Assembly: GCA_903921135.1 (NCBI GenBank) | Contig: CAIXOY010000245.1 | Span: 1 to 43,950 of the forward strand | Reading direction: 5' to 3' | Length of the DNA: 43,950 bases | DNA from: an uncultured Gammaproteobacteria bacterium | GTDB lineage: Bacteria; Pseudomonadota; Gammaproteobacteria; Pseudomonadales; UBA5518 | Part shown: positions 1 through 22,710 of the stretch, in pieces | How the letters are laid out: every line of letters starts with the position of its first letter | Numbering within the stretch: the stretch's first letter is position 1 | Notes under the pieces: generated by a model | Databases searched by the model: none | What the model was told of the DNA's origin: nothing | The model's input: the letters and a program-made list of their open reading frames with translations, nothing else | Translations under genes and position numbers: made by a program

Positions 1-1036
1 CAACCATGCCGGCTGCGGTCGCCGTGTTGGCCGTGGCGGGTGACTCGGCGGCCGGCCCTGCTGGCAGCCGCGTGACGAAGCGCAGCGCGCGCTCTTCGCT
101 GCGCACCCGATCGGCGTTGCGCAGTGCACCGCGCAGGCTGGCGTCCTCTTCCAGGCAGTGTGCCTCCGGCACGCGGGCGGCGAAGCGCGGCAGGCCGGCA
201 ACGCGCGCACCGAGCAGCAGGCTCGCGCCGCCACCTTCGCGCGCAAGGGCTTCCAGCAGGTCGGTGTAGATTGCCTGCGCCGCGTCCAGCATGTCCGCGG
301 CGCGCAGCGTCGCACGATGGCGATGATCCTGCTGGCGGATCTCGGCCTCCACGCTCTCCCGGGTTGCAAGCGCGTCCAGCCAGCCCGGAAGCCTGTCGTA
401 GAGCGCCTGCTCGCTTGCCGCGGCATGGAGCGGGTCGAAGCGGCACTGCTGTATGAAGGCCTCGGCCGCGCGACGTGCCCAACGGTCCTGCAGGGCGGTG
501 AGCCCCGTGCCGGGCAGGGTGCGCACGGCGCCGCGCGATAGCGTGCCTTGCTCGTGCTCGATGCGCGTGAGCACGGCCTGATGCAGTTGCAGCTCGAGAT
601 GTATCGCCGGCCCTGACAGGGGAACCGTAACGGCCGCTGCGAGTGCGCTGTCCACCAGCCCGCAGGCGCGGAACGGGCAGCGCTCGGCTATGCCCAGCAG
701 CAGCGCGAGTTGCTCGCGCGTGAAGCTGCCCGGCACGGCGAGCAGCAGTTCCGCCGGTTTGCCGCCCAGCTCGTGTACGTGCAGCAGATGCCGGTAGCCG
801 AGATCTGCGTGGTGGCGCGTGTGGGCCGGGGCGTGGTGCAGCGGTTCCGTGCCCAGCCGCTGCCAGAACTGGCTGAGCGTGCGGCGCGGATCGATGCGTG
901 CCGTGGACCGCGCCGCCTCGCCCATGACAGGCGCGTCTGCCGCCAGCAGCGCGAACGCAGGGCTGCGCGCGCGCACACCGTCCGCATCCCCCAGAAGCAG
1001 CGCTGCGTCGTTCAGTTCGAGTACCGCCAGGCTCAC
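1..1036 (-). CDS. Actin/Hsp70-fold (ASKHA-like) protein with degenerate nucleotide-binding loops; N-terminal 345 codons only, gene continues past the left edge
   Basis: Absent from the ORF track because it has no in-window stop. I translated the minus strand from GTG 1036-1034 (GTGA overlap with the upstream stop) and the frame stays open to position 2. MSLAVLELNDAALLLGD... and LLLAVPGSFTREQLALLLGIAERCPFRACGLVDSALAAA resemble the Hsp70/MreB 'VP..F...Q....A...AG....EP.AAA' segment. Confidence 0.6.
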   Translation of the reverse strand, partial: MSLAVLELNDAALLLGDADGVRARSPAFALLAADAPVMGEAARSTARIDPRRTLSQFWQRLGTEPLHHAPAHTRHHADLGYRHLLHVHELGGKPAELLLAVPGSFTREQLALLLGIAERCPFRACGLVDSALAAAVTVPLSGPAIHLELQLHQAVLTRIEHEQGTLSRGAVRTLPGTGLTALQDRWARRAAEAFIQQCRFDPLHAAASEQALYDRLPGWLDALATRESVEAEIRQQDHRHRATLRAADMLDAAQAIYTDLLEALAREGGGASLLLGARVAGLPRFAARVPEAHCLEEDASLRGALRNADRVRSEERALRFVTRLPAGPAAESPATANTATAAGMV

Positions 1037-1845
1037 GCGCGCATCTCCCGCGTTATCTTGAGGTGCGGCAGCAGCCGGTCCTCGCAGAAGGACTGCGCAT
1101 CCAGCGCCAGGCGCTCCTGCTGCAGCTGTATCTGGTGCATCAGGAACATGAGGATGATGCTGAGCAGCAGCGCGACCAGCGTGGAGTTGAAGGCCACGCC
1201 GAGCGCGTCCGTGACGCCGGCGATGTCGCCCTCCACCGCGCGGTAGGCCTCGCTCAGTGCCATGCCGATGCCGCGCACGGTGCCGATGAAGCCGATCGCC
1301 GGAATGGCCCAGGCGATGTAGCGGATCATCGAGAGCTCCGAGTCGAGACGCTCGCCCTCCGTCACGCAGGTCTCGCGTATCGCGCCCGAGGCATCCTGCA
1401 CGCCCTGCGTCACGGCGAAACGCTGCAGGCCGGCCACCAGCGCGCGCGGCAGCAGGCATTGCCGCGATTCGGGTGGCAGGGCCTGGATCGGGCGCAGGTA
1501 ATCGCGCGCGTCGTCGGGCAGGATGCTGGTGCCTGCGGGCACCTGCACCAGCGGCTCACGGAAGAGCGTGCGCTCGTGGCGCAGCTGCGCGCCCTTGAAG
1601 CCCATGATGGCGATGCACCAGAAGAACAGGATCACCTCGGACTCCTGCTCGTAGTCCTTGAGGATCACGAAAATGGACTGGGGCTGCGCCGTCGTGTCGC
1701 CGGCGGCGATGCGCTCGGCCTGCGCGCTCAGGTGTGCCTCCGCGCGCGGCCACACCACAGCCACCCAGACCGTGTGCACCACGATCAGCGAGAGCAGCAG
1801 CGCGAATATCTGGAACAGGAACTCGGAGGCAAGGAGACGTTTCAT
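1033..1845 (-). CDS. MotA/TolQ/ExbB proton-channel family protein (270 aa)
   Basis: N-terminal TM helix plus C-terminal TM pair. These carry the family-typical MIRYIAWAIPAIGFIGTVRGIGMALSEA and TDALGVAFNSTLVALLLSIILMFL segments. Stop overlaps the downstream GTG start. Confidence 0.85.
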   Translation of the reverse strand: MKRLLASEFLFQIFALLLSLIVVHTVWVAVVWPRAEAHLSAQAERIAAGDTTAQPQSIFVILKDYEQESEVILFFWCIAIMGFKGAQLRHERTLFREPLVQVPAGTSILPDDARDYLRPIQALPPESRQCLLPRALVAGLQRFAVTQGVQDASGAIRETCVTEGERLDSELSMIRYIAWAIPAIGFIGTVRGIGMALSEAYRAVEGDIAGVTDALGVAFNSTLVALLLSIILMFLMHQIQLQQERLALDAQSFCEDRLLPHLKITREMRA

Positions 1846-1884
1846 CGACGTGGCTCGTGTCCTGGTGGGTGGTTGGCCATGGGC

Positions 1885-2151
1885 TCAGATGTCGGAGGGA
1901 AACGACACCGAGAGGTCTTCGGAGATTTTCTCGGACGGGTTGAAGCGCTCATTGGCCTTGCGGGTGGCGGCGGCTTCGTCCGATGCGCTGCTGCCGTCCT
2001 TGTCGCCCCCGTCGGCTTTTTTTCCTGGAGCGCTTGACGCTTTTGCAGGAGACGCTGTTGCGGTGACCGGCGCCGGTGCTGGCGAGGGTTCTGCCGCGCG
2101 CAGTACTGCCGACATCGAGAGCATCAGCGCGACCCAGTGCAACCGCCTCAC
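1885..2151 (-). CDS. Small secreted or anchored Ala/Pro/Ser-rich protein (88 aa), no recognisable family
   Basis: GTG start at 2151 overlaps the TGA of the upstream gene (GTGA). Hydrophobic N-terminus WVALMLSMSAVLRA-AE looks like a signal peptide. The rest is low complexity, so coding status is less certain. Confidence 0.5.
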   Translation of the reverse strand: MRRLHWVALMLSMSAVLRAAEPSPAPAPVTATASPAKASSAPGKKADGGDKDGSSASDEAAATRKANERFNPSEKISEDLSVSFPSDI

Positions 2152-4235
2152 TTGAGATACCTCGCAATCCGGAATCCCACGTCAGCGCGGGCCTCCGAGC
2201 CGTAGTCCCGGAAGGCGAGCCGCAGTTCCGTGAGGCCGCCGTGGCGCCAGCTCGCACCGCGTATCACGTGGTACTCGCCGATGTCCGCGCCGAAGGGGTC
2301 GGTCTCGACGCCTGCGCCGGGCGGAGCCGCGTCGTAGATGTCGTGGACCCATTCTGCCGCATTGCCGCCGAGGTCGAACAGGCCGAGCCGGTTTGGCGCG
2401 AAGCTGCGCACGGGAGCGGATACGGGGAAGCCGTCGTCGTAGCCGGCAATGATCTCGCCGAGGATGGTCTCGCCGCTCTTGTCGGCGTAGTTGCCTGCCT
2501 TGGGCCCAGGCGGAAGTGCAGCGCCCCACGGGAAGCGCAGCAGGTTGCCGTCCGTAGTGAGCGTGGCGGCCCACGCCCATTCCGCCTCGGTGGGCAGGCG
2601 GTAGCCGGTGGCGGTTTGGTCGATGCCTGTGATGGCCTTGCCGGAGACACGGTAGAAGGGCTTCAGCTTCTCCCGCTCGCTCAGCCAGTTGCAGTAGAGC
2701 GCCGCATCCGTCCAGCCCAGGTTCGTGGCGGGCTGCGTGTCACCGTTCAGGCTTTTGCCCTTGAAGTTGCCCGAGGAATGCGCGGGACGGAACTGCCGGA
2801 ACTCCGCGTTGCTCACCTCCGTCACGCTGAGGTAGTAGGGCCGCGTGAGGCGTATTTCGCGCATGGCCTCGTTGGCGCGTCTGCCCGATTCGCGTCGCGA
2901 GGAGCCCATGCGGAAACTCCCCGGGCGCATCAGCGCGAGCTCCTGCCCGGCGGCCGTGCGCAGTTGCGTGCGCGTGGCGGCTTCTTCTTTTTGTGCGAGC
3001 GTCTTCAGCCTGAGGTTGAAGGCTTGCGGAAAGCCGGGGCGCGGCGTGACGCGCAGCGTCTCGTCCGCGTAGCCCTTGCGCCGCACGGTGAGCACCTGCT
3101 GCGCGGCGGGCAGGGAGAGGGTGGCGGTTCCTGTTGCAAGCTGGCGCTCGCCAGCGAAAATCCCCGCGTCTGCAGGCGACACGCTGAGCCGGATCTCCCC
3201 CGCGAGGGCGCGCAGCGAGAGCTTGATCTCCTGCTCGCCTGCCGTTGCGCTGAAGCGGCGCAGTGCTCGCTCGTGGCCTGCCTTGAAGGCGATCAGTTCG
3301 TGGGCTTTGCCCGATTCGAGCGCGATATCGAGGGGCGTTACGCCGCGGAACTGTCCGTCCAGCGTGATGCTGGCGCCGGCAGGCGTGCTCGAGATGCGCA
3401 ACTTCGCGTCGGCGCGCACCAGCGTCATGCGTGCGAGGCTGCGCTCTTCGCCGGCCTTTGCCTCGACGAACAGGGCCTCGTCGCGATGACCCGCAAGGCT
3501 CAGCTGCAATTGCCGCGGGCCTTGCATCAGTTCCAGCGTTACGGGCGTAGTGCCGATCGCTGCGCCATCCAGCGTGACCGTGGCGCCCGCGGGCTCGGTC
3601 TCGAGCCGGTAGCTTCCCCAGCCCGGCGCCAGTCGCAACTCCAGCGATTGCTGCTTGCCAAGGCCCTCCACCGTCAGGTCCTGCTCGAGCGGCAGGAAAC
3701 GGTCAGCCTCCACGCGCAGGCGGTGCAGCCCCGCAGGTATCTCGAGTTCACCTGCGTTGCTGTTGCCGATCGGGGTGCCGTCGACCAGTACACGCGCCTC
3801 CACCGGTTCCGTGCGCAGCGCGAGGAGTCCCGGCAGTTTCTCGAGCCGCAGCTGCAGCTCGTTGCTGCCGTTGTTGACGCTGAAGTCCTGCTCCAGCGAG
3901 TGGTAGCCGGGCGCGGTGGCGCGGACCTGATAGCTGCCCGTGCGCAGCAGCACGCTGCTGCCGAGCACGAGGTGCAGGCCGCCGTCGATATCGACGTGCG
4001 CCTCCGGAGGATCTGTTTGCACCCGCAGCGTTTGCGCGCTCAGCAGGAACCACGCGAAGAGCGCAATGGCGAGCAGCGCGGAGCCCACCATGATCTGGCG
4101 CTTGCCCGGGCGCCGTGCGGGCGTGGTGGCAGCGGCAGGATCCGGCGGGCTGTAGGCAAAGGGCGCGATGGGCGCATCGTGTGCGTCCTCGGCGGGTGAG
4201 CCGTTGCCGGTGGTCATCAGATTTTTTGCCCGCAT
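2148..4235 (-). CDS. TM-anchored periplasmic protein with several PEGA-like repeats and a C-terminal FGE-sulfatase (SUMF1/EgtB/PvdO) fold domain
   Basis: TM segment IMVGSALLAIALFAWFLLSA. Repeated beta-sandwich modules (V.VDG..iG.TP..l.l..G.H.l...), e.g. ARVLVDGTPIGNS...LEIPAGLHRLRVE and ATVTLDGAAIGTTPVTLELMQGPRQLQLS. C-terminal RPGSFRMGS...YYLSVTEVSNAEF...YRLPTEAEWAWAA...GNAAEWVHD...IRGASW motifs. An alternative ATG at 4217 gives an ATGA overlap with the upstream stop. Confidence 0.85.
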   Translation of the reverse strand: MRAKNLMTTGNGSPAEDAHDAPIAPFAYSPPDPAAATTPARRPGKRQIMVGSALLAIALFAWFLLSAQTLRVQTDPPEAHVDIDGGLHLVLGSSVLLRTGSYQVRATAPGYHSLEQDFSVNNGSNELQLRLEKLPGLLALRTEPVEARVLVDGTPIGNSNAGELEIPAGLHRLRVEADRFLPLEQDLTVEGLGKQQSLELRLAPGWGSYRLETEPAGATVTLDGAAIGTTPVTLELMQGPRQLQLSLAGHRDEALFVEAKAGEERSLARMTLVRADAKLRISSTPAGASITLDGQFRGVTPLDIALESGKAHELIAFKAGHERALRRFSATAGEQEIKLSLRALAGEIRLSVSPADAGIFAGERQLATGTATLSLPAAQQVLTVRRKGYADETLRVTPRPGFPQAFNLRLKTLAQKEEAATRTQLRTAAGQELALMRPGSFRMGSSRRESGRRANEAMREIRLTRPYYLSVTEVSNAEFRQFRPAHSSGNFKGKSLNGDTQPATNLGWTDAALYCNWLSEREKLKPFYRVSGKAITGIDQTATGYRLPTEAEWAWAATLTTDGNLLRFPWGAALPPGPKAGNYADKSGETILGEIIAGYDDGFPVSAPVRSFAPNRLGLFDLGGNAAEWVHDIYDAAPPGAGVETDPFGADIGEYHVIRGASWRHGGLTELRLAFRDYGSEARADVGFRIARYLK

Positions 4236-5764
4236 TGCACGACCACGGGCGCCGTTGCCTGCCCCGGGCGCAGCGAGAACTCCACGCGGACATCACGGAA
4301 GCCGTCCCGGCGCCCAACGGCAACGTAGTCGCCTGGCAGGAGCGAGAGTTCCTTCCCGGTGAAGTTCCCGAGGCTGCCGACGCGGAACACGATCACGTCG
4401 GTCTTGCCGTCGGAGCGCAGTTGCACGGGCAGCTCGGTGCGCATCGAGGCCAGGGTCTGCCGTGCCGCGGCGATCTGCCCCTTCAGTCGCGGCCCGGGTT
4501 CGGGTATCGCGGCAGCGGATGCTAGGAGCTTGTCGGCGGCTTTGCGGGCAGTGTCGTTGGCGAGTTTGCCGGGCTCCGCGGCGAGCCGCGCGAGCGCTTC
4601 GTCCAGCGCAAGCCGCGTGCGTGCCCGGTCGCCTCCGGTGCTGGCACTGCCGAGCGCCGGATCGACGGCCAGCGCGGACTCGTACTGTGCGAGGGCGCGT
4701 TTCCAGTCCTCGGCACGCTCAGCTTCCTCTGCCGCGCGCAGCAGCGTGCCGATGCGTTGCTGCCCCATCTGGAACTCGGCCTGCTGCAGACCCTCGCGCG
4801 CGGCGCTGCCACCGCCGAGCGGGATCGCCGCCTGGAATTCCTTGCGGGCGTCCTCGAGCCGCCCCGCAGCCAGAGCCGCGTAGCCCGCTGACATGCGTGC
4901 GGCGCTGCGCTCCCCCGTGATGCGCGCTTCCACCGCGGCCAGTGCCTGGCGCGCCGGCTCCCAGCCGTTGTCCAGCGTCAGCGCCTCCCGGTAGCTGGCG
5001 GCTGCCTGCTCGAATTGCCCTGCAGATTCCTGTGTCTTGCCCGACGCGAGGCGTGCGGCCAACTGATCGAGCTTGCGCGCGCGCTCCAGTCCCGCACTCG
5101 CACGTGCGTCAGCGGGCTCGATCGCTGCAGCCTCCGCGAAGGCTGCGAGCGCGGTGGCCTGATCGCCCGCCGCGAAGGCGGCATCACCGGCTGCGAGGCG
5201 TGCCTCGAGCCGTGCGGGGATGCCGTCGCGCAGTGCGCGCAGTGCGGTTTCTCCCTCGCGATAACGCGCTGTCGCATCCGTGAATCGCGATTCGCGATAG
5301 GCCGCGTCTCCTTGCTGTGCCAGCGCGATGGCGGCGTCGAAATCCGCTTTTGCCCAGGTGTCTGTCTTGCGCTCCTGAAGTTCGTATTGCAGGGAGAGGA
5401 GGGCGTCGAGGGCTGTCTTGGCGGCGGCGCGTTCGCGGTCGGACTGTGCCTGCTCCCACGGTGACTGGGCGGCCGAGGCGGCAGGCGCAGCGGCGGCCGC
5501 TGGCTTCGCAGCGGGGGGTGTTGCCGTAGGGCCGGGCGCGGTGCTGGCGGTAGTGGCGGCGGGTGCGCTGGCGGGCGGCGCGAGAAGATCGGGCAGCACG
5601 AAGAACACGCCCGCGGCCAGCAGCAGTAAGGCGCCTAGCACCGCGAACGCGCCGAGGGACGTGCTCCGCGCTTGCGCGGCCGGCAGTTGTGCTGCGGGTG
5701 CGCTGGCGGGCGGCGCCATATCGAGCGCTGCGGGCTGTATCCGGTCGAAATCGTGGTCTGACAT
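4217..5764 (-). CDS. TM-anchored Ala-rich TPR-like repeat protein with C-terminal beta-sandwich (PEGA-like) module
   Basis: Single TM (LGAFAVLGALLLLAAGVFFVL), then a Pro/Ala linker. Repeated helical hairpins follow (..A...Y.EA..LD......A...LA...). C-terminus VQLRSDGKTDVIVFRVGSLGNFTGKELSLLPGDYVAVGRRDGFRDVRVEFSL. Confidence 0.7.
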   Translation of the reverse strand: MSDHDFDRIQPAALDMAPPASAPAAQLPAAQARSTSLGAFAVLGALLLLAAGVFFVLPDLLAPPASAPAATTASTAPGPTATPPAAKPAAAAAPAASAAQSPWEQAQSDRERAAAKTALDALLSLQYELQERKTDTWAKADFDAAIALAQQGDAAYRESRFTDATARYREGETALRALRDGIPARLEARLAAGDAAFAAGDQATALAAFAEAAAIEPADARASAGLERARKLDQLAARLASGKTQESAGQFEQAAASYREALTLDNGWEPARQALAAVEARITGERSAARMSAGYAALAAGRLEDARKEFQAAIPLGGGSAAREGLQQAEFQMGQQRIGTLLRAAEEAERAEDWKRALAQYESALAVDPALGSASTGGDRARTRLALDEALARLAAEPGKLANDTARKAADKLLASAAAIPEPGPRLKGQIAAARQTLASMRTELPVQLRSDGKTDVIVFRVGSLGNFTGKELSLLPGDYVAVGRRDGFRDVRVEFSLRPGQATAPVVVQCGQKI

Positions 5765-5791
5765 GGAGGGGCTTCGAGCGCGGGATCCGGC

Positions 5792-6967
5792 TCAGATGCT
5801 ACCGGTCTCGGCTTCGTAGATGCCACGCAGGATTTCCCGCCATTGGCCGTACTGGTCCTGGACGCTTCCTGTCAGCGTGACGCTGCGATCCTCGAGTTCG
5901 ATCACCTGCGGTTCAATCTCTGCGCTCAAAGAGCCGCCGAGTTCTTTCAGGGTCTCGGCGTGCATCTTCGATTCGGCGCGCTTGTCGAAGCCGCTCTTCA
6001 CCATCGCGGCGCCACCGATGATGCCGACGGTACCTGCCGCGCGCGTCGCGGCGCTGTCTCCCGTCTGTGCCGCGATACCGGCCAGGATCGAGGCCACGCC
6101 GGCAATGGTGCGGCCTGTGGCCTGCGCGCGCAGTTCCCGGTAGGCGATGCTCTCGGAGTAGCTCTCCTTGCGCCAGTCCTGGTAGGGGCCGGACATCTGC
6201 TTCGAGAAGCCGGTGTAGTAGTCCTGCAGCGTGTCGACGAAGAGGTTGTCACGCTCGCGGATGCGGCGGATGCGTTCGAGCATCGGGTCGTTCTCGGCCG
6301 GGAGTCGCCGTACGCTCACGCGGCCCTTCTTGTCGATGTCGAGGAAGCCGCCGAAAGCCTTGGGCGCGAAGCTCTGGGCGAAGCGCAGTTCGCTGATGGT
6401 GCGCAGGCGCGTGGCCTCGGCTGCGGGCAACTTGGCGCGCGCCAGCGCGAGATCGTTGGCGATGCGGTTGTACACGTCCTGGAAGGGTTCGGGCACGCGC
6501 TTGCCCTCGTAGGAGTATTTGCTGGCGTAGCCCTCGTACTGCTTCGTGTACCAGGCAGCACCGGCAGCGTCCGAGACGCTGATCTCGAGCGAGAGTTTCT
6601 CGCCGGTGGACTCGAGGATCTTGCCCGCCACCACGATGTCGCTGATGCCCGTTTCCGTGGGTGCCACTCGCACTGCGCCCCAGTGGCCGCTTTTCTGCAG
6701 CGTGTCGGCGAGTGCCGTGGGCATGTAGCGCGCTTCGGCCTTGCGGATCTCGGGCGAGGTGAAAATCTCCTCCTCTGTGAGCTTTGCGGTGTTCGGGTCG
6801 AAGAGCCTCACGCCCACGTCGAGGAGCTGGTCCTCGGGCATGGAGGGATCTCCTGCTATGACGGGCGTCACCTCGGTGGTGCGCACCGTGCTGGAGGAGC
6901 AGCCACCTAGCAGCAGCGCCACCAGGGAAAGCAACGCCAGTCGGGCGCCGGTGCTGCGCAGGGACAT
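5792..6967 (-). CDS. Lipoprotein with C-terminal glycine-zipper segment (391 aa), unknown function
   Basis: Lipobox LLLGG-C at residues 19-23. C-terminal IAGVASILAGIAAQTG...GTVGIIGGAAMVKSG glycine zipper. ATG 6967-6965 overlaps the upstream TGA (ATGA). Confidence 0.7.
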   Translation of the reverse strand: MSLRSTGARLALLSLVALLLGGCSSSTVRTTEVTPVIAGDPSMPEDQLLDVGVRLFDPNTAKLTEEEIFTSPEIRKAEARYMPTALADTLQKSGHWGAVRVAPTETGISDIVVAGKILESTGEKLSLEISVSDAAGAAWYTKQYEGYASKYSYEGKRVPEPFQDVYNRIANDLALARAKLPAAEATRLRTISELRFAQSFAPKAFGGFLDIDKKGRVSVRRLPAENDPMLERIRRIRERDNLFVDTLQDYYTGFSKQMSGPYQDWRKESYSESIAYRELRAQATGRTIAGVASILAGIAAQTGDSAATRAAGTVGIIGGAAMVKSGFDKRAESKMHAETLKELGGSLSAEIEPQVIELEDRSVTLTGSVQDQYGQWREILRGIYEAETGSI

Positions 6968-8118
6968 CAGGACTTCCTCTTTGCCGAATTCACGTACTTG
7001 CGGTACTCGTCCCAGAGCTTGTCGCGCAGCTCGGGGTCTTTTTCCTTCATCGCGGCCTCGCGGATCTGGCGCGCCACCACGTCATCGTCGCTGCCGTCGG
7101 GGATGTCCGGCGGGGGCGTGTTGGTGGCCGCGGCATGGGTATAGTCTCCCTTGCGGCCTTTGCCGCCGCCGATAGTCGACATGCCAGAGCCGCTGGAGGC
7201 ATCGTTTTCGGTGGGCGCGCCACCGCCTTCCCCGCCTTGCTGCGGCGCCGGGCCCTCGCGCACGCTGCCGTAGCTGCCCTCGGAGCTTTCTTCTCCGCCC
7301 GCGGCCTCCGGGTCCAGCATGCCAGCGCTCTCTGCCTGCGAGGCGCCGCTTCCGGTGTCTTCGGCCTTGGCCTGCACACGGTCGCGCTCGCCGAGCATCG
7401 CACCGTCAAACCGTCCCAGCGAGGCATTGAGTTCGGCGTTCAATCGTTCGGCCTCGCTGCCACCCGCTTCGTTGCCGCTGCCGCCGCCGTTCACGGCCTG
7501 CTCGATGTCTTCCGGGCTGCCGGGCTCCCCGCCGCCGGCCTGCCCGGCCTCGCCTTGCGCTGCAGCTGATGCACTCGCGCTGCCCTGACTGTCATCCAGA
7601 CTGGGCTCGGCGGACTCGCGTTTCATCGCTTCCACGGCGTCTTCGAGCACCGCTTCCTCGCTGGCCGCGGCAGAGGCTTCGGCGGCTGCCGCGGCGGCCT
7701 CAGCCTGGGCTTTTTTCTTCTCGCTGTCTTCCAGCATCACCTCGTCGCTGGGTGTTCCCTCGCCGCTGTCTCCGGGTTCACCGCCCTGCTCCCACGGCGG
7801 GCGACGCTCGGCCGACGCCGCACCTGAACTCGCCTGTTGTTCGCTCTTGCTGCCGGGGCTTCCCGGACTGCCGGGCATGGACGGCATGGACGGAGAGCCC
7901 GCGCTGGGGGAGCTGCTGGCGGGTGAAGAGGGGCTGCTGCGTGAACTGCTGCTGGAGGAGGAGCTGCTGGACGACGAGGAGCTGCTCGAGGGCATCGAGC
8001 TGCTGCTCGTGGGCATCTGGGCCGACGGGGGCTGACTGCTGCTGGAGGTGGTCTTGCAGCCGCCCATCAGCGCAGCCAGGACGACGGGCAGAAGCAGCCG
8101 CGGATGCAATGCGTTCAC
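6967..8118 (-). CDS. Ser-rich, acidic, largely disordered lipoprotein (383 aa) with conserved-looking charged C-terminal helix
   Basis: Lipobox ALMGG-C. A 16-residue poly-Ser run, then long Glu/Ala/Gly/Ser low complexity. Ordered-looking tail DIPDGSDDDVVARQIREAAMKEKDPELRDKLWDEYRKYV. GTG 8118-8116 overlaps the upstream TGA. Confidence 0.7.
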   Translation of the reverse strand: MNALHPRLLLPVVLAALMGGCKTTSSSSQPPSAQMPTSSSSMPSSSSSSSSSSSSSSSSRSSPSSPASSSPSAGSPSMPSMPGSPGSPGSKSEQQASSGAASAERRPPWEQGGEPGDSGEGTPSDEVMLEDSEKKKAQAEAAAAAAEASAAASEEAVLEDAVEAMKRESAEPSLDDSQGSASASAAAQGEAGQAGGGEPGSPEDIEQAVNGGGSGNEAGGSEAERLNAELNASLGRFDGAMLGERDRVQAKAEDTGSGASQAESAGMLDPEAAGGEESSEGSYGSVREGPAPQQGGEGGGAPTENDASSGSGMSTIGGGKGRKGDYTHAAATNTPPPDIPDGSDDDVVARQIREAAMKEKDPELRDKLWDEYRKYVNSAKRKS

Positions 8119-9521
8119 AGCGAGTACCTGTACGTGTAGGTGATGTCAGGGGTGGGCACCGGTATGCCGGACTCGAAGCGTGGCCGAAAGCGCGTGGCGC
8201 GCAGGCGCTTCCGGAGTTTGTCTGCCTGCAGTGCGGCCGATTTCTGCTCGGGTGTCTCGGGGGGCGCGGCGGCTGGCGTGGCCGTTGCGCTGCTCTCTGC
8301 TGGCGCAGCGGCATCTGCCGGGTCTGCAGTCGGTTCTGGCGTCTTCGCCGCGGGTGGGGCGGGCGCTTGCGGCTCCACGATCCGGATGTCCTCCACGAGG
8401 CCGCGCTCGTTGACGGCGAAAGTGACGGTGATGTTTCCCTGTGCCGCGGATGTGCCAAGCCCGGCCTCCGCCAGCGCAGCCAGCCCTTCGGGCAGGACCG
8501 GTAATGCTATCGGATGGCCGAAGATCTGGTTGACCGCGGCGTTGGAGGTGTCGGCCGCCGCTTGGGTCCACGCCTCCTTGTAGAGTTCGAGCGCCGTCTG
8601 GCGGCGGTTGAACAACTGGTGCCAGTCGCCGAGTTCCGCCGCAGCCTGGCCGCGCAGCAAAGCGCTCGCGGCCGGGTCTTGCCGGCGCAACTCCACGACG
8701 CGCTCCAGCGCCGCGCGTCCGGCGGTGAAACCCGTGATGGCATAGGCGGGGCCCGCCTGTTGCTGTGCATTCGAAGGGCCCGCGGAGAACGAGACGCCAC
8801 CACCGCCAGTGGGCACGTAGGAGGCGAGGTAGTAATCGACGATCGCTTTCTCGCGCAGAGCCTCGGGCAGGCGCGAGTCGCTGCCCGGCGGCTTGGCCTG
8901 GAGGATCCCGAGCGAGGATTCGTAGAGGTTGCGCGCGGCCTCGAGGTGGTTGATGGGATCCTCGCCGATGTCCCCGAGGTAGGCGCCCAGATGCCAGGCG
9001 GAGAGCCGTTGCAGCGCGGGCAGCATGCGCTCGTCGCTTTCCCCGTAATTCCGGCGGTGGATCTGGAACATCTGCTGGTAGCTGGTGCCCACGCCGTCCC
9101 ATTCGCCGAGCGCGGAGTAGCTCTCGATCAGCCGTTCCAGGATGGGCAGGTCGGAGGTGCTGTACAGGCCCTCGTTCACGCGTGTGATGTGCGCCGCACG
9201 GGAGAGGGCTTCTGCGGCTTCAGCATGGCGTCCTGCTGCCTGGTATGCGGAGCCGAGCCCGAGCAGTTGCTCCGACAGGGCGGCGTCGTAGGCCCCTCCG
9301 TGTGCCTCGAGCGCCTGTACCGCGTCGAGGTATCGCTGCTGTTCGGGGGTCGGAGGCAGTGTGGGCTCTTTTGCCTCGGCGTCGGCGGTTTCCGCGGGCG
9401 TATCGGCGGCGTTCGCCGGTGCCGGTGCCGTTGGCGCGGAAGCATCGGTGCTGGCGCCATGTGCCGCCACGGCCAACGCCAGAAGGGCGCCTCCCAGGAA
9501 GACGGGTAATGCCTTGGTCAC
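8115..9521 (-). CDS. Secreted TPR-like protein with TonB_C-like C-terminal domain (468 aa)
   Basis: The track ORF (to 10124) is trimmed to GTG 9521, which has a GGGAGG Shine-Dalgarno 5 nt upstream and starts a signal-like VTKALPVFLGGALLALAVAAHG-AS. The upstream 201 codons are antisense to a good SnoaL gene. C-terminus ITVTFAVNERGLVEDIRIVE ... LRKRLRATRFRPRFESGIPVPTPDITYTYRY resembles the TonB C-terminal fold, with a Pro/Ala-rich insertion. Confidence 0.7.
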   Translation of the reverse strand: MTKALPVFLGGALLALAVAAHGASTDASAPTAPAPANAADTPAETADAEAKEPTLPPTPEQQRYLDAVQALEAHGGAYDAALSEQLLGLGSAYQAAGRHAEAAEALSRAAHITRVNEGLYSTSDLPILERLIESYSALGEWDGVGTSYQQMFQIHRRNYGESDERMLPALQRLSAWHLGAYLGDIGEDPINHLEAARNLYESSLGILQAKPPGSDSRLPEALREKAIVDYYLASYVPTGGGGVSFSAGPSNAQQQAGPAYAITGFTAGRAALERVVELRRQDPAASALLRGQAAAELGDWHQLFNRRQTALELYKEAWTQAAADTSNAAVNQIFGHPIALPVLPEGLAALAEAGLGTSAAQGNITVTFAVNERGLVEDIRIVEPQAPAPPAAKTPEPTADPADAAAPAESSATATPAAAPPETPEQKSAALQADKLRKRLRATRFRPRFESGIPVPTPDITYTYRYSL

Positions 9522-9726
9522 TCGGGCCTCCCTAGATGATTGCAGGGCCTTGGACTGCGGGTCGCGCAGCGGTTCCCGCGTGGTTCTTGTGCGCAGCCGC
9601 CAGTGCCGCAGTGCGATCCATTCTGCCTGCTCGCTGCTGGGCGGGGAAGGCGCTGGCCGGCCGTTGGCCAAGCCCGTGCGCTCCCGACTATAGTGCGCTA
9701 CCTCGCGGGCGCTGGAGTGGATCTCA

Positions 9727-12033: not shown

Positions 12034-13212
12034 TCAGCGGCGGCTGTAGGCCGCCATCCCCAAGCCGAACTGTGCGACCAGATCTCGCATCACCTCGGCC
12101 ACGCCACCGCCGAAGGTATTGATCTGGCACTTGCGGTAGTGCTCTTCCAGATCTCCGGCCAACGCTGCGCCCGGGCTGCCGCGACGATAGCCGCCAGCCA
12201 TGCCCGTCACCTCGAGCATCAGCTTGTCGACGGCGATGAGGCACTCGGTGCTGTAGGCCTTCATCGCCGAGGCGAAGGCGGGGTCCGGCTCGCCGCTGTC
12301 GAGTTGCCAGGCCATTCGCCAGTTCATCAGGCGCATGGCTTCGAGCCGCGTGTAGACCTCGGCAAGCGCCGACTGCGCCCAGGGTTGGTCCACCACGCGT
12401 TTGCCGCCCACCACTGTTTCCTGTGCCCACTTCAGGGTGCGCGCGAGGAGCCCCCAGCCTTGCACACCGATGGCCGCGAGACCCACGCGCTCGTGGTTGA
12501 GCTGGGAGGTGATGAGTTTCCAGCCGCTGTTCAGTCCGCCTGCGATCATCGATGCGGGCACACGCACGTTGTCGTAGTAGCTCGCGTTGCTGCGCACGCC
12601 ACCGACGGTGCGGATGGGCGTGAAGCTGAAGCCCGGGAGCGTGGCATCGACCATGAAAATGCTGATGCCCTTGTGCGGCGGTTTCACCTCCTGATCGGTG
12701 CGGGCCGCGAGCCAGACGTAGTCAGCGGCTTCAGCGCTGCTCGTCCAGATCTTGTTGCCGTTGATCACGTAGTGATCGCCGTCGAGCACCGCGCTGGTTT
12801 TCAGCGAGGCGAGGTCGGTGCCGGCGCCCGGCTCGGTGTAACCGATAGCAAAGTGCAATTCGCCGGCGGCGATTTTGGGTAGAAAAAAGTTCTTGTGCTC
12901 GTCGGAGCCGAGTGCGATCAGGCAGGGCGCCACCGTGCTGATCGTCACGAAGGGCAGGGGAACCTCGGCGAGTTGCGCTTCCTCGAAGAACACGAGCTGC
13001 TCGGAGCTGGGGCGGCCCTGACCGCCGTACTCCTTCGGCCAGCCGAGCGCGAGCCAGCCGTCCTTGCCCAACTGGCGGATGACCTGCTTGTAGGTCGCGC
13101 CGCCCTCGTTGCCGCGGGTAGCTTCGCGGATGTCGGGAGTCATCAGTTCGGAGAAGTAGGCGCGCAATTCGCGGCGCAGTGCCTTCTGGGAATCGGTGTG
13201 GTCGACGTGCAT
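12034..13212 (-). CDS. Acyl-CoA dehydrogenase family protein (392 aa)
   Basis: MHVDHTDSQKALRRELRAYFSELM..., FAIGYTEPGAGTDLASLKTSAV, INGNKIWTSSAEAADYVWL. The track ORF (to 13626) is trimmed to ATG 13212; its upstream part is antisense to the tetR gene. Confidence 0.9.
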   Translation of the reverse strand: MHVDHTDSQKALRRELRAYFSELMTPDIREATRGNEGGATYKQVIRQLGKDGWLALGWPKEYGGQGRPSSEQLVFFEEAQLAEVPLPFVTISTVAPCLIALGSDEHKNFFLPKIAAGELHFAIGYTEPGAGTDLASLKTSAVLDGDHYVINGNKIWTSSAEAADYVWLAARTDQEVKPPHKGISIFMVDATLPGFSFTPIRTVGGVRSNASYYDNVRVPASMIAGGLNSGWKLITSQLNHERVGLAAIGVQGWGLLARTLKWAQETVVGGKRVVDQPWAQSALAEVYTRLEAMRLMNWRMAWQLDSGEPDPAFASAMKAYSTECLIAVDKLMLEVTGMAGGYRRGSPGAALAGDLEEHYRKCQINTFGGGVAEVMRDLVAQFGLGMAAYSRR

Positions 13213-13245
13213 GGTGTGCGCTCCCGTGGTCGGTCCGCACATCAT

Positions 13246-13269
13246 ATTGAAATTGGATTCAAATTCAAT
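13246..13269. promoter_or_regulatory. Imperfect palindrome; candidate TetR operator in the divergent ACAD/tetR intergenic region
   Basis: ATTGAAATTGGATTCAAATTCAAT is AT-rich in an otherwise GC-rich window. It sits between divergent starts 13212 (-) and 13282 (+). The outer arms ATTGAA / TTCAAT are inverted. Confidence 0.35.
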
Positions 13270-13281
13270 AAGAATGCATTC

Positions 13282-14049
13282 ATGTTGGACGCTACGCTCA
13301 AGACACGGGCTTCCTCGCCCCCGCGTCGCCCGGCCAAGCCCGGGCGCGGTGAGCCTGCGAAGCACAGCCCGCGCGGCGAAGCGGCCCGGGCGCGCCTGAA
13401 GGAGGCGACCGGCAGGGTGCTGGAGCGGGTCGGTTACCGCCAGATGCGTGTCGCGGACGTGACGCGTGAGGCTGGTGTGGCCACGGGGCTGTTCCATCAC
13501 TACTTTCCGGACCTGAAGACCGCGACGATCGAAGTGCTGCGGGATTTCATGACCCGCTTCGAGGACCTCGAGTCCATCGAACGGGGTGTGGTGAAGGGGG
13601 ACTGGTTCGGGCGCAGCCTCGCGCACAACCGCTTGGTGGTGCAGAGCTTTGCGCGCAACCCGGGCATCATGCGTTGCATGGTGCAGGTCGGTGACGAGGA
13701 GCCCGAGTTCGGCGAGATCTGGCGCGCCAGCTATTACCGGCGCCTCGAGTTACTGGTGAGGGCCATGCCGAGGCTGTTCCCCTCGGCCGGTTTTGGCGAC
13801 GGCGAAGCGCGTTTGGTCACGCGGATTCTCGCGGGCATCGGCGAGCACGTGCTGGCCGAGTACTACATCCTCAAGGTCCCGGCGCTGCGCGAACTGGAGC
13901 TTGACGAGGATCAGATGGCGGAATGGGTGACGGTGATGTTCCATCGCGCCCTGTTCCTGGAGAACCCGCCCGCGGCGCGACTGCGCCACGCGGCGAAACT
14001 GGCCGGGATGCGGCGTCCGAGACGCGACGCCCTCGAGGCCGAGACCTGA
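13282..14049 (+). CDS. TetR/AcrR-family transcriptional regulator (255 aa)
   Basis: HTH region GYRQMRVADVTREAGVATGLFHHYFPDLKT. Start trimmed to ATG 13282. Confidence 0.85.
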   Translation: MLDATLKTRASSPPRRPAKPGRGEPAKHSPRGEAARARLKEATGRVLERVGYRQMRVADVTREAGVATGLFHHYFPDLKTATIEVLRDFMTRFEDLESIERGVVKGDWFGRSLAHNRLVVQSFARNPGIMRCMVQVGDEEPEFGEIWRASYYRRLELLVRAMPRLFPSAGFGDGEARLVTRILAGIGEHVLAEYYILKVPALRELELDEDQMAEWVTVMFHRALFLENPPAARLRHAAKLAGMRRPRRDALEAET

Positions 14050-14074
14050 TACAGACACCGGAGGACGGTTGGTC

Positions 14075-15034
14075 GTGAGCGACATCGACGAGCAGCTTCA
14101 GCAGTTTCTTGGCAGGCCTTGCGGCCCTTACAAGAGTTGGGACCCGGTCAATCAGGCCATGATCCGTCACTGGTGCGAGGCCATGGGGGACAGCAATCCC
14201 GTGTACACGGATCCTGCCTTCGCGGCAGCGTCCGTGCACGGCGGCATCGTGGCACCCCCGACGATGATGCAGGCATGGACGATGCGTGGCGTCACCTCGG
14301 AGTGGGCGACCGGATCGGACACGCGAGAGCCCTTCGAGGTGTTCCAGTTCCTCGAGCAGCACGGCTATCCCGCCGTCGTCGCGGTCAACTGCGAGCAAAC
14401 CTATTACCGCTATCTGCGGCCGGGCGATCTGATCCACCACACCTCGCGCATCGAGGCCGTGTCGCCGCAGAAGACCACCGCGCTCGGCGTGGGCTACTTC
14501 GTGACGGAGCTCGAGGAGTACTGGGACCAGAACGGCGAGAAGGTCGGCGACATGCGCTTCCGGCTGTTCAAGTACCGCGCGCACGAGAGGCCCGCAGAGC
14601 CCGCCGCCGCAGCCCCGGGCAAACCCCCGAAAATCGGCCGCTTCCGCGCCGTCGAAAATCACGACACGAAGTTTTTCTGGGAAGGCATCCGTGCCGGCAA
14701 GTTGCTCATCCAGCGCTGCAAGGCTTGCGGCGCATTGCGTCATCCGCCGGGGCCGATGTGCCCGTCCTGCCAGTCGCTCGAGTGGGACACGCTGGAGAGC
14801 AGCGGCCGCGGCATCGTCTACAGCTTCGTCGTGATGCACCACCCGCCGATCCCGCCGTTTGACTACCCCAACACCGTGCTGCTCGTAGAGCTCGAGGAAG
14901 GCACCCGGCTCGTGACCCAGTTGGCCGACGGAAAGCCCGGCGATGTGGAGGTCGGAACGCCGGTGGAGGTGGTCTTCCGTGAAGTCGAGGAAGGCTACAC
15001 CCTGCCACTCTTCCGTGTTCGCAAGGAGTCCTGA
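14075..15034 (+). CDS. MaoC-like (hot-dog) hydratase subunit fused to a DUF35 Zn-ribbon/OB-fold domain (ChsH2-like)
   Basis: N-terminal half has NQAMIRHWCEAMGDSNPVYTD. C-terminal half has FWEGIRAGKLLIQRCKACGALRHPPGPMCPSCQS...GIVYSFVV (DUF35 rubredoxin-like ribbon plus OB). GGAGGA lies 10 nt upstream of GTG 14075; the track start TTG 14069 is too close to it. Confidence 0.85.
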   Translation: MSDIDEQLQQFLGRPCGPYKSWDPVNQAMIRHWCEAMGDSNPVYTDPAFAAASVHGGIVAPPTMMQAWTMRGVTSEWATGSDTREPFEVFQFLEQHGYPAVVAVNCEQTYYRYLRPGDLIHHTSRIEAVSPQKTTALGVGYFVTELEEYWDQNGEKVGDMRFRLFKYRAHERPAEPAAAAPGKPPKIGRFRAVENHDTKFFWEGIRAGKLLIQRCKACGALRHPPGPMCPSCQSLEWDTLESSGRGIVYSFVVMHHPPIPPFDYPNTVLLVELEEGTRLVTQLADGKPGDVEVGTPVEVVFREVEEGYTLPLFRVRKES

Positions 15035-15035
15035 G

Positions 15036-16169
15036 ATGGAGTTTTCGATTTCGGAAGAAGTGCGTGCGGTTCAGGAACTGGCGGCGAAGATTTTCTCCGA
15101 ACAGGTCGATGACGCGGCCCTGAAGCGGTTCGATCGTGGCGAGATCCGCTGGCACGAAGGCGTGTGGTCCCTGCTCGGGGAGTCCGGGCTGCTGGGTGTT
15201 GCGCTGCCGGAAGAGTTCGGCGGCAGTGGCATGGGCCTCGCAGGCTTGTTCGCGGTACTCGAGGAGCAGGGCCGGCACGTCACGGCGCTACCGCTGGTCG
15301 CTGCGGCGCTGGGGGCGCTGCCGCTTGCGCGCTTCGGATCGGCCGCTCAACAGTCCGAATGGCTGGCGAAAGCGGCCTCGGGGGAGGCTCTGGTGGCAGG
15401 TCCGTTGCCTACCTCTGCCGTGGAACACGAGCCGCGGGAAATCCCCGCGCTTTCGGGTTCGGCCGATGCATTCGTGCTCACCGGTGCGCTGGAGGCGGTG
15501 CCTTACGGGGCGGATGCCGATGCGTTGCTGGTGCCGGCGCGGGATGACAGCGGCGTATTGAGCGTGTTTGTCGTGGCACGCAATGCTGCCGGGGTTCAGG
15601 TCGAGCGCGAGCGGGGCACCAACTACGAACCCTTCGACCGCATCTTTTTCAACGGCGTTACGCTGAGCCCGGCCGACCGCCTGGGTGCCGCCGGGGACGG
15701 GGCATGCATCCTCGAGTGGCTTGCCGACCGCGCTGCGACCGCATACGGATTCATCCAGTTGGGCGTGCTTGCCGATGCGGTGCGGCGCACGGCGCAGCAC
15801 ACGGTCGAGCGCAAGCAGTTCGGTAAACCGTTGGCGGGATTCCAGGCCGTCGCGCACCGCGCAGCGGATTGCTACATCGACATCGAGGCCCTGCGCTCCA
15901 CATTGTGGCAGGCAGCCTGGCGCCTCGACCAGAACCTGCCTGCGGGCAACGCCGTGGCCTCTGCGGCCTGGTGGAGCAGTGAGGCTGGGCACCGGGTGAG
16001 TCACGCCTGCCAGCACCTCCATGGTGGCACTGGTGCAGACGTCGATTACCCGATACACCGCTACTACCTGTGGGCACAGCAGGCACGTCTGTGCCTTGGT
16101 GGCAGCGAACGCATTCTGGCCGGCTTCGGTCGTCAGCTGGCAGGGCAATCCATCGAGGTCGGACTATGA
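15036..16169 (+). CDS. Acyl-CoA dehydrogenase family protein (377 aa), probable second subunit of a heteromeric ACAD
   Basis: MEFSISEEVRAVQELAAKIF..., ERKQFGKPLAGFQAVAHRAADCYIDIEA. ATG lies 1 nt after the upstream stop. Stop overlaps the next start (ATGA). Confidence 0.85.
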   Translation: MEFSISEEVRAVQELAAKIFSEQVDDAALKRFDRGEIRWHEGVWSLLGESGLLGVALPEEFGGSGMGLAGLFAVLEEQGRHVTALPLVAAALGALPLARFGSAAQQSEWLAKAASGEALVAGPLPTSAVEHEPREIPALSGSADAFVLTGALEAVPYGADADALLVPARDDSGVLSVFVVARNAAGVQVERERGTNYEPFDRIFFNGVTLSPADRLGAAGDGACILEWLADRAATAYGFIQLGVLADAVRRTAQHTVERKQFGKPLAGFQAVAHRAADCYIDIEALRSTLWQAAWRLDQNLPAGNAVASAAWWSSEAGHRVSHACQHLHGGTGADVDYPIHRYYLWAQQARLCLGGSERILAGFGRQLAGQSIEVGL

Positions 16170-16597
16170 GCAACCACGACATCAAGGCTCGGCGTTTTGC
16201 GGATCTGAATATCGGTGACGAGATCCCGCCACTGGGTATCGACATCACGACGCGCCTCATCGTCGCCACGGCGATCGCGAGCCGCGACTACCAGAATGTC
16301 CACCACGACAAGCCGGGCGCGCAGGCGCTGGGCTCGCCGGACATCTTCATGAACATCCTCACCACCAACGGGCTGGTCGGGCGTTACATCACCGACTGGG
16401 CCGGCCCGGAGGCCTTGCTCCGCTCGGTGAAAATCAAGCTCGGCGTGCCCAACTACCCGGGCGATCGCATGGAACTCCGAGGGCGTGTCACGGCGCTGCG
16501 CGAAGAGGGCAGTGACCGTCTCGTGGACATCGATGTGGCCGGCAAGAACGGTCTTGGCTTCCACGTCACGGGCACCGTGACCGTGGCTCTGGCCTGA
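16166..16597 (+). CDS. MaoC-like hot-dog hydratase subunit (143 aa, ChsH1-like)
   Basis: ASRDYQNVHHDKPGAQALGSPDIFMNILTTNGLVGRYITDW is a MaoC dehydratase motif region. Confidence 0.85.
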   Translation: MSNHDIKARRFADLNIGDEIPPLGIDITTRLIVATAIASRDYQNVHHDKPGAQALGSPDIFMNILTTNGLVGRYITDWAGPEALLRSVKIKLGVPNYPGDRMELRGRVTALREEGSDRLVDIDVAGKNGLGFHVTGTVTVALA

Positions 16598-16613
16598 GCG
16601 ACAGGAGAGACGC

Positions 16614-17798: not shown

Positions 17799-17852
17799 CG
17801 GTCTGTGCCGTGCGCCTGGTGCAGCGCAGCCGTGAATTTGCCGCCAACGCAG

Positions 17853-17890
17853 AGGGCCCCCGCGATCCGATAGGGGCCCTTTGCTAGTAT
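17853..17890 (+). terminator. Candidate intrinsic terminator after the catabolic operon
   Basis: Perfect 8-bp stem AGGGCCCC (17853-17860) / GGGGCCCT (17873-17880), followed by a moderately T-rich TTGCTAGTATT. Confidence 0.45.
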
Positions 17891-17927
17891 TGCGAGCAAG
17901 TCCCACTCCCTGCCGTGACGCTTTTTC

Positions 17928-18854: not shown

Positions 18855-18901
18855 CCTTCCGCGAGCGCCCGCAGACGTCTACAGCACCTAAACGACAGGC
18901 A

Positions 18902-18932
18902 TAAAAAAACGCCCACCCTTGCGGGGTGGGCG
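18902..18932. terminator. Bidirectional intrinsic terminator between convergent ldt and lpp-like genes (strong on the minus strand)
   Basis: AAAAAAA-CGCCCACCC-TTGC-GGGGTGGGCG. Read on the minus strand, the hairpin is followed by a T7 run. Confidence 0.65.
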
Positions 18933-18975
18933 TTTCATGTGTCTCGTCAGAGGTCGGCTTGACCGACCAGACGAA

Positions 18976-19686: not shown

Positions 19687-19718
19687 CGCCCCTTGCGCAA
19701 GCCAGGGGCGTTTTTTTT
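19687..19718 (+). terminator. Orphan plus-strand intrinsic terminator
   Basis: CGCCCCT (19687-19693) / AGGGGCG (19704-19710) stem followed by T8 (19711-19718). No plus-strand CDS lies upstream of it. Confidence 0.65.
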
Positions 19719-19721
19719 GAT

Positions 19722-22709: not shown

Positions 22710-22710
22710 G

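Follow-up and report, generated by a model that had tools for sequence, protein, structure and literature searches.

The stretch of DNA analyzed here (the window) consists of 43,950 nucleotides of contig CAIXOY010000245.1, from an uncultured gammaproteobacterium of the UBA5518 lineage within the Pseudomonadales. Its first 9,521 positions are occupied by eight tightly packed minus-strand genes, g1 to g8, one of which encodes an ion-channel subunit of the MotA/TolQ/ExbB family (Table 1). We put at roughly two in three the probability that these genes, together with others predicted to lie beyond the contig edge, encode a machine of the Ton/Tol/Mot 5:2-motor kind, driven by the proton-motive force (PMF) and spanning the whole cell envelope. 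To our knowledge, there are few routes by which the proton energy of the inner membrane is brought to the unenergized outer membrane: the Ton and Tol-Pal systems, flagellar stators, the type IX secretion system (T9SS) and its associated gliding machinery, Agl-Glt, and Zorya.

Layout and extent of the operon

All eight open reading frames (ORFs) that an initial annotation, made from the sequence alone, had described in this region are present. Five of the seven gene junctions are start/stop overlaps and lie where that annotation had placed them. Three are GTGA overlaps of 4 nt, at 8115-8118 (g1/g2), 2148-2151 (g5/g6) and 1033-1036 (g7/g8), and two are TGATG overlaps of 1 nt, at 6965-6969 (g2/g3) and 4215-4219 (g4/g5). 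The last of these had been made conditional on ATG 4217 being the true start of g5, which is the start chosen by gene callers on identical contigs, giving a protein of 689 aa; the alternative, ATG 4235, would give a 19-nt overlap with g4. The other two junctions are short gaps, of 27 bp between g3 and g4 and 39 bp between g6 and g7. A terminator scan found a terminator-like site in neither gap, and over the operon region as a whole such sites occurred at the frequency expected by chance. Scans for Rfam families and tRNAs gave no match within the operon.

The start codon of g1 is GTG 9521, with the Shine-Dalgarno sequence GGGAGG ahead of it. Because the gene upstream, encoding a SnoaL-like protein, is transcribed divergently, g1 can be taken as the first gene of the operon. 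A sigma-70-like scan of the intervening region identified no promoter for g1, the sole match being on the plus strand, at 9665-9694. At the opposite end, g8 is cut by the end of the window, which is also the end of the contig, at residue 345 of ~456, and the identical contigs in public collections all stop near the same point within g8. In related genomes the operon continues past g8 with g9 (~362 aa), g10 (~332 aa) and then g11, so that the count of eight genes in the initial annotation is an artifact of truncation. The eight ORFs are real, but the complete operon, judged from relatives, appears to consist of 11 genes in the clade of the window and of 12 in most other relatives.

Table 1. Coordinates of the operon genes and of the presumed promoter region in the window, and of variant homologues in two divergent loci
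Feature	Sequence	Coordinates	Strand	Description
g1	window	8115..9521	-	Signal-peptide TPR protein with C-terminal TonB_C domain
g2	window	6967..8118	-	Lipoprotein, lipobox LMGGC; Ser-rich then acidic, disordered
g3	window	5792..6967	-	Lipoprotein, lipobox LLGGC; Gly-zipper
g4	window	4217..5764	-	Inner-membrane-anchored TPR protein with C-terminal PEGA-like beta-sandwich
g5	window	2148..4217	-	Inner-membrane-anchored PEGA and FGE-sulfatase-fold protein
g6	window	1885..2151	-	Small secreted protein with signal peptide, 88 aa
g7	window	1033..1845	-	MotA/TolQ/ExbB-family ion-channel subunit
g8	window	1..1036	-	Hsp70-fold protein (nucleotide-binding domain), first 345 of ~456 residues
g1/SnoaL-like divergent intergenic region	window	9522..9725	none	Presumed operon promoter region
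g4 homologue with kinase	L089	4238-6385		Pkinase match
g4 homologue with kinase	L091	4410-6638		Pkinase match
g8 homologue with canonical FHA	L089	10001-11374		Pfam match
g8 homologue with canonical FHA	L091	10001-11383		Pfam match

The channel, its candidate partners and the other components

The assignment of g7 to the MotA/TolQ/ExbB channels was supported by a clear match to the Pfam family MotA_ExbB (PF01618, E=4.7e-13, 49 bits vs. a cut-off of 22.9). At the level of individual NCBIfam models, the scores were well under the cut-offs for both TolQ (25.7 bits vs. 221) and ExbB (18.6 bits vs. 135), and a profile of the g7 MotA family had no match in the PDB at E<=0.01. The two threonines that line the channel in TolQ and ExbB correspond in g7 to T189, in the motif GFIGTVRG, and T222, in AFNST. 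Both are invariant in 25 aligned sequences, and across loci the motifs were found in 82/87 and 87/87 cases, respectively.

The initial annotation had proposed looking past the left edge of the window for an ExbD/TolR-like partner of this channel. What the relatives have there is a pair of paralogues, g9 and g10, each with an Arg-rich N-terminus, a single transmembrane (TM) helix, a coiled coil and a vWA domain. The TM helix carries the motif S-F-L-D-(V/I)-x-x-C-G-F-G-A, in which the Asp is found without exception once the copies are read in frame, and we take this helix to resemble the helices PFIDVMLVLLIIF and PLLDVLLVLLLIF of ExbD and TolR. Residues ~38-150, a stretch of ~110 residues, match dimeric coiled coils. 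The Pfam family VWA_2 was detected in 31 of 32 g9/g10 proteins, and the DxSxS(M) motif of the metal-ion-dependent adhesion site (MIDAS) is intact in all copies of g9 and g10 (76/76 and 75/75). The start and stop codons at the junction of the two genes overlap in 61 of 77 loci. None of the loci examined has an ExbD, TolR or MotB gene, which, together with the retention of the channel threonines in g7, suggests that g9 and g10 are the partner (B) subunits of the g7 motor. The features expected of a 5:2 motor were thus found as follows: an A subunit and the channel threonines in the window and, in the relatives, a candidate B subunit with an Asp-bearing helix beside the A subunit.

A motor of this composition has recently been predicted by computation only (PMC12204202, Mol Biol Evol 2025). 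In that study, TolQ-like genes without tolR, exbD or motB were found in close linkage with genes for a heterologous pair of vWA proteins tethered by a TM segment, and the conserved Asp of the vWA "transpore helix" was modeled with AlphaFold3 (AF3) inside the pentamer, beside the ring of threonines. The family, which was built from an Idiomarina seed and occurs in Proteobacteria and Verrucomicrobia, was proposed to form 5:2 motors; no function was assigned and no phenotypes were reported, with gliding raised as speculation for the vWA transducers. By the published description of its gene content and motifs, g7, g9 and g10 match this family feature for feature. The paper and its supplements are silent on the TPR-TonB_C protein, the lipoproteins, the TM-anchored TPR or kinase protein, the PEGA/FGE-like protein, the acidic-tailed peptide and the Hsp70/FHA protein, and our literature search found no other paper describing the system. 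The initial annotation had called the system undescribed. For the motor core this is no longer so, but it does apply to the other eight or nine components, and as far as the searchable literature shows most of the parts list is first reported here.

The cytoplasmic protein g8, initially read as having an actin/Hsp70 fold, has no Pfam match, HSP70 included, and a full-length sequence search against the PDB was likewise negative. The fold became evident from structure prediction. For P0121, a full-length relative that is 95% identical, the AlphaFold2 (AF2) model has a mean confidence (pLDDT) of 93, and the first ~330 residues resemble the nucleotide-binding domains (NBDs) of Hsp70 proteins (Foldseek E=1e-14 to 1e-17, TM-score 0.65-0.70 vs. 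NBD-only chains). In the same model the last ~95 residues, which lie off the window, form an FHA-like beta-sandwich and not a substrate-binding domain, and the FHA family itself (PF00498) was matched in distant g8 homologues. Hsp70 proteins bind nucleotide through Gly-rich loops (phosphate-1, phosphate-2 and adenosine) with the motifs DLGTT, DLGGGT and GGxxR-P. The loops of g8 are conserved and free of glycine (E-L-N-D-A, H-L-D-L-Q-L-H-Q and LLSxRxAxLP), and for this reason g8 is probably not a canonical ATPase. Six loop residues are near-invariant in the alignment (N9, D10, H146, D148, H152 and T157), which hints at a conserved ligand or metal site of a non-ATPase kind. The g8 family is large, with 1268 clusters (50% identity) at E<1e-30 among 1.84 billion representatives, all of them unannotated. 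The fold search, which the initial annotation had recommended for its unassigned proteins, also returned a weak TolB-N-like match for g3.

Among the envelope components, g1 had been described as a TPR protein ending in a TonB_C-like domain. This was borne out at the level of the family, with TPR_12 in 24 of 25 orthologues and TonB_C in 17 of 25 (best E=4e-9). The window copy is below threshold in both respects (TPR_12 E=6e-6, 26.7 bits, Pfam; tonB_Cterm E=0.007, NCBIfam), in the case of TonB_C owing to a Pro/Ala-rich insert that interrupts the C-terminal domain. The protein has a cleavable-looking signal peptide, and neither a membrane anchor nor an SHLS-type helix. The next two genes encode lipoproteins, as annotated, each with a recognizable lipobox. 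No Pfam match was found for g2, which has a conserved C-terminal segment of ~40 aa. This segment alone is detected by tblastn, with 62-86% identity at ~65 loci, always directly upstream of g3. For g3 there are more than 3600 homologues, all unnamed and without a Pfam match. The AF2 model of g3 (pLDDT 76) has an N-terminal alpha/beta domain, a 120-residue helical hairpin and a small C-terminal beta unit, and the glycine zipper forms the tip of the hairpin. The likeness of this hairpin to those of alpha-pore-forming toxins is weak (Foldseek E ~0.2), and profiles of g3 and of g11 gave no meaningful match in the PDB.

Both g4 and g5 have the single N-terminal TM segment expected of anchored proteins, at about residues 36-58 in g4, by hydropathy, and 42-62 in g5. 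In g4 the TM segment is followed by a Pro/Ala linker and a periplasmic TPR array (TPR_2 E=5e-7, Pfam), ahead of the C-terminal beta-sandwich; TPRs were found in 24 of 26 orthologues. In g5 there are four or five PEGA beta-sandwich domains and then a C-terminal domain of the FGE-sulfatase (C-type-lectin-like) fold, both recognized at the outset and strongly supported by Pfam (E=3e-43 over 4 stretches and E=2e-36, respectively). The best NCBIfam match of g5 is to GldK/PorK, at 92 bits vs. a cut-off of 350, with GldJ at 43 vs. 458. Cysteine is absent from the last 70 aa in all 72 orthologues, which means that the catalytic Cys pair of FGE enzymes, presumably located near the C-terminus of the domain as in human SUMF1, is not present. 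The FGE-like domain is therefore probably a binding head and not an enzyme.

The smallest gene, g6, annotated as an 88-aa secreted peptide, is a real gene. When the ORF lying between g5 and g7 was aligned across ~70 loci, it was seen to have a signal peptide, then a hypervariable spacer and, at its acidic C-terminus, the near-invariant sequence FxPSEEISEDLSVSFP(V/S)DI-COOH. The C-terminal 19 residues are the most conserved short motif of the operon and could be a ligand for the MIDAS site or for the beta-strand of a TonB_C domain. No curated NCBIfam family was found for g8 to g12, and across all 11-12 proteins curated family names extend no further than generic domains.

Conservation and variants in related genomes

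Relatives of the operon were found by searching with an alignment of g7, whose MotA subfamily is present in at least 600 species-representative genomes. From these, 80 loci, each from a species-level genome, were retrieved as a synteny sample. The hosts include Microbulbifer, Exilibacterium, Halioxenophilus, Porticoccus, Halieaceae, Litorirhabdus and Azotimanducaceae, as well as many metagenome-assembled genomes (MAGs) of Pseudomonadales. When these loci were searched by tblastn with 11 proteins, g1 to g11 proved to share one order and one strand at essentially all loci whose flanking sequence was long enough. Overlapping junctions alone are common in operons; the retention of order and strand in ~80 genomes is better evidence that the block is more than a chance arrangement, and the co-conservation that the initial annotation had called for as a check is therefore present.

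Of the closest relatives used, L008 has 95.4% nucleotide identity to the window over a 1764-bp overlap. The MotA protein of another, L006, is 90% identical to g7, and that of Porticoccaceae LTM1 is 60% identical. In all three, g10 is followed by g11, which encodes a lipoprotein of ~218 aa. A further lipoprotein gene, g12 (~221 aa), comes after g11 in 38 of 51 full-length loci (for example, at 15011-15676 in L007), and a BepA-like M48 peptidase gene is next after it in 18 of the 51 (15808-17157 in L007). Both g12 and the peptidase gene are missing from the clade nearest the window. At certain loci the pair g11 and g12 is found upstream instead, on the opposite strand.

Four divergent loci, L088-L091, one of which is labeled Acidobacteria, keep the core g4-g5-g6-g7-g8-g9-g10. 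In L089 and L091 the g4 homologues, which are 35-37% identical, carry a Ser/Thr kinase domain in their cytoplasmic N-terminus (Pkinase E=4e-25), and the g8 homologues of the same two loci have a canonical FHA domain (Table 1). This co-occurrence, in 2/2 loci examined, suggests that the kinase variants may have an optional phospho-relay between g4 and g8.

Three public MAG records that contain the operon, L009 (CAMAXE010000004.1), L057 and L059, are labeled "Klebsiella pneumoniae" and "uncultured Enterobacteriaceae". These labels are probably wrong, since the GC content of ~68% and a MotA protein 90% identical to that of the window point to gammaproteobacteria of the Pseudomonadales type.

Outside the operon the window is a stretch of ordinary chromosomal DNA, with genes for acyl-CoA dehydrogenases, queA, tgt, ffh, trmD, xerD, dsbC, hom, thrC, recJ, lysS and two-component genes. 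The GC content of the operon (0.68-0.70) is slightly above that of the rest of the window (0.61-0.67; 0.61-0.65 at 16000-30000). Horizontal transfer came into question on this account, but the flanks are conserved in relatives. A cluster at 12034-17798 resembles genes for the degradation of steroid or branched-lipid side chains; besides acyl-CoA dehydrogenases it encodes a TetR regulator, a thiolase-like protein and a ChsH2-like hydratase made up of a FAS1_DH region, a zinc ribbon and an OB fold. Between this cluster and queA-tgt lie a gene for a YkuD-type L,D-transpeptidase (17928-18854) and a tRNA-Leu(CAA) (19722-19808). At 38225-42434, a hybrid histidine kinase (HAMP-HisKA-HATPase-two receivers) adjoins a response regulator that also carries an adenylate/guanylate cyclase domain.

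Relation to known systems and proposed mechanism

The initial annotation had held that the layout is not that of the Ton, Tol-Pal, flagellar stator or Zorya systems. We reached the same result for each of these, and for the T9SS as well. There are nevertheless likenesses. With Tol-Pal the operon shares a PMF-driven channel of the MotA family, an Asp on the helix of its partner, a stalk that would span the periplasm, a domain of the TonB_C/TolA-III type, outer-membrane lipoproteins, a TPR protein (cf. CpoB) and the weakly TolB-N-like g3. It differs in that g9 and g10 carry a coiled coil and a vWA domain instead of the periplasmic, peptidoglycan-binding domain of TolR, that the TonB_C protein is secreted and not anchored in the motor, and that PEGA/FGE-like and Hsp70-like parts are added. 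Neither a WD40/TolB propeller nor an OmpA domain was found in the Pfam-scanned genes of the window or in the inspected Pfam gene lists of relatives. The likeness to the GldLM (PorLM) motor of the T9SS and gliding lies in a 5:2 motor of the inner membrane with a long dimeric B subunit that crosses the periplasm, and in a partner of the FGE-sulfatase fold, GldK/PorK there and g5 here. However, GldK/PorK is an outer-membrane lipoprotein, whereas g5 has a TM anchor in the inner membrane, PEGA repeats and no lipobox; g7 belongs to the MotA_ExbB family and not to the GldL family; and no homologues of GldL, GldM, GldN or SprA were found.

Another potential explanation is that the operon encodes a trans-envelope signaling device, in which g5 and the vWA heads would sense a cue and pass it to a kinase/FHA relay, the MotA-like channel acting as a sensor of PMF or ions. 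The fusion of a Ser/Thr kinase to g4, with a canonical FHA domain on g8, in L089 and L091 is what such a device would have. The operon also resembles the threonine-phosphorylation pathway of the type VI secretion system (T6SS; PpkA with the layout kinase-TM-vWA, PppA, Fha1, the co-receptor TagR and the lipoprotein TagQ) in having an inner-membrane protein whose vWA domain is periplasmic, a cytoplasmic FHA domain, an outer-membrane lipoprotein and, in those two variants only, a Ser/Thr kinase. TagR may have an FGE-like fold, although our literature search found no paper stating this. In the same pathway, with which the operon has its domain vocabulary in common, Fha1 is phosphorylated by PpkA, and TagR, a periplasmic co-receptor, interacts with the C-terminal, vWA-bearing domain of PpkA (PMC3224232). 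However, the operon has no T6SS genes and its vWA domains are on motor subunits; there is no kinase in the clade of the window or in most of the 80 loci, and the FHA-like domain is degenerate. No phosphatase, transcription factor or other output domain appears in the Pfam gene lists of L005-L007 and L088-L091. Moreover, the strict conservation of the channel threonines, the TM Asp and the long coiled-coil stalk would be better explained by a working motor, and we regard the signaling interpretation as unlikely.

Surface motility or adhesion after the manner of Myxococcus Agl-Glt, with a TPR/TonB_C relay and adhesin-like vWA heads providing traction or attachment, seems more doubtful still. Agl-Glt/Nfs had been named as the nearest analogue, and the themes are indeed shared: both have a motor of the TolQ type with an FHA domain close by, TonB_C domains, periplasmic TPR proteins and a vWA protein (PMC11761067). 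Gliding was also the speculation raised for the vWA transducers of the published family (PMC12204202). Orthology, however, was not found. In scans with general NCBIfam models, which include no dedicated Glt profiles, there was no Glt, Nfs or Agl match and only a weak one to a TraC TPR, and the architectures differ. In the operon the vWA domains are on the motor B subunits, tethered to the inner membrane and not surface-exposed, and not on an outer-membrane adhesin; the FHA domain is on an Hsp70-like cytoplasmic protein and not on a TonB-like transducer; and there are no outer-membrane beta-barrels or counterparts of MglA, AglZ and GltI. The hosts, moreover, are largely planktonic or polysaccharide-degrading gammaproteobacteria of marine and fresh waters, such as Microbulbifer, Porticoccus and Halieaceae. 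The TonB_C domains in g1 orthologues and the MotA/ExbB family of the motor would also accord with a Ton-like energizer of uptake, in which g1 contacts TonB-dependent transporters encoded elsewhere and the motor pulls. In the Ton system, TonB has an N-terminal membrane anchor, then a Pro-rich linker and TonB_C. Since g1 has a signal peptide in place of the anchor, and no SHLS-type helix, it cannot be pulled by the motor directly. ExbD was found in no g9/g10 protein, and no TonB-dependent receptor is in the Pfam gene lists of L005-L007 and L088-L091, which cover these loci only and leave room for receptors elsewhere in the genomes. We consider this very improbable. Least credible of all is an anti-phage defense of the Zorya type, or another conflict system, built on the MotA-like channel. 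Zorya systems have a ZorA with a long tail, a ZorB with a peptidoglycan-binding domain, and ZorC/D or ZorE effectors. When nine components were scanned with PADLOC, the result was a weak ZorA match on the MotA domain (E=6.5e-5), together with weak coiled-coil matches, and no other component. Domains of the vWA, FHA and FGE-like kinds do occur in conflict systems, in a survey that does not describe this operon (PMC7159879). However, no nuclease or other effector is encoded, most of the components are envelope proteins with a signal peptide or lipobox, and the block has the same housekeeping flanks in related genomes and is inherited as a fixed unit across whole families.

For the PMF-driven trans-envelope machine that we favor, the following mechanism can be proposed. 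A pentamer of g7 would surround the N-terminal TM helices of a g9/g10 heterodimer, and protons passing through the Thr-lined channel onto the Asp of g9/g10 would make the dimer turn relative to the pentamer. The motor may in this way turn or pull the g9/g10 coiled coil. With ~110 residues this stalk would be ~16 nm long, which would bring the vWA heads close to the cell wall and outer membrane, and the PEGA stalk of g5 would place its FGE-like head at a similar height. MIDAS sites bind carboxylates, which makes the acidic C-terminus of g6 and the acidic g2 candidate loads; the g5 head, g1, g3, g11 and g12 may be others, and the vWA heads could also engage the TPR protein g4. In the cytoplasm, the probable role of g8 is that of a regulator or clutch docked on the motor or on the tail of g4, in analogy to the FHA domain of GltG, which is predicted to dock on the AglR motor pentamer (PMC11761067). 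Docking would probably be phospho-dependent where g4 has a kinase and g8 a canonical FHA domain.

A number of points weigh against this interpretation. The genes g9, g10 and g11 lie beyond the window and are placed there from relatives. A profile of the g9/g10 TM helix, a segment too short for profile searches to reach significance, matched no ExbD, TolR or MotB in the PDB, and gave one spurious match to NDUFB4; a Pfam scan of the 32 g9/g10 proteins found no ExbD. As the helix has no significant match to these families, the proposed B-subunit role rests on the resemblance of the motif, the position of the genes and the published AF3 models. The match of the N-terminal domain of g3 to TolB (4r40_A, Foldseek E=4e-3 over 126 columns) is weak, and the FHA-like domain of g8 is without clear phosphothreonine-binding residues in the clade of the window. 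The operon has no gene for an outer-membrane beta-barrel or for an obvious substrate. The 5:2 stoichiometry, the rotation and every contact in the periplasm and at the outer membrane are likewise predictions from sequence and models.

What the machine would do is a guess: its output may be a mechanical maintenance or remodeling of the envelope similar to that of Tol-Pal, through contacts with outer-membrane lipoproteins or the cell wall. The operon could encode a complete machine, of an uncharacterized trans-envelope class and with 11-12 parts dedicated to it, in which the vWA heads grip and mechanically work lipoproteins, an FGE-like receptor and an acidic peptide, under the gating of a pseudo-Hsp70/FHA protein that is phospho-regulated in the kinase variants. 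We offer this fuller account tentatively, as somewhat less than an even chance.

Each of the known systems for bringing energy across the envelope has opened a field. What the operon contributes to these is a variant whose plug subunits, part of the motor itself, bear integrin-type adhesion heads on a rigid stalk, together with a strictly syntenic parts list that runs from the cytoplasm to outer-membrane lipoproteins. The published prediction of the motor core came with no partners and no hypothesis for its target (PMC12204202). With co-conserved partners, direct binding and genetic tests become possible, and cultured hosts such as Microbulbifer, Halioxenophilus and Exilibacterium are available. 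The partners that can be examined are the FGE-like head, the TonB_C/TPR protein, the acidic-tailed peptide, the lipoproteins, the Hsp70-fold/FHA protein and the optional kinase. If the fuller account is true, the operon would represent a new process of envelope maintenance or of the cell surface, distinct from Ton, Tol-Pal, T9SS and gliding, and distributed among hundreds of gammaproteobacterial species that are abundant in aquatic habitats, with some other phyla as well.

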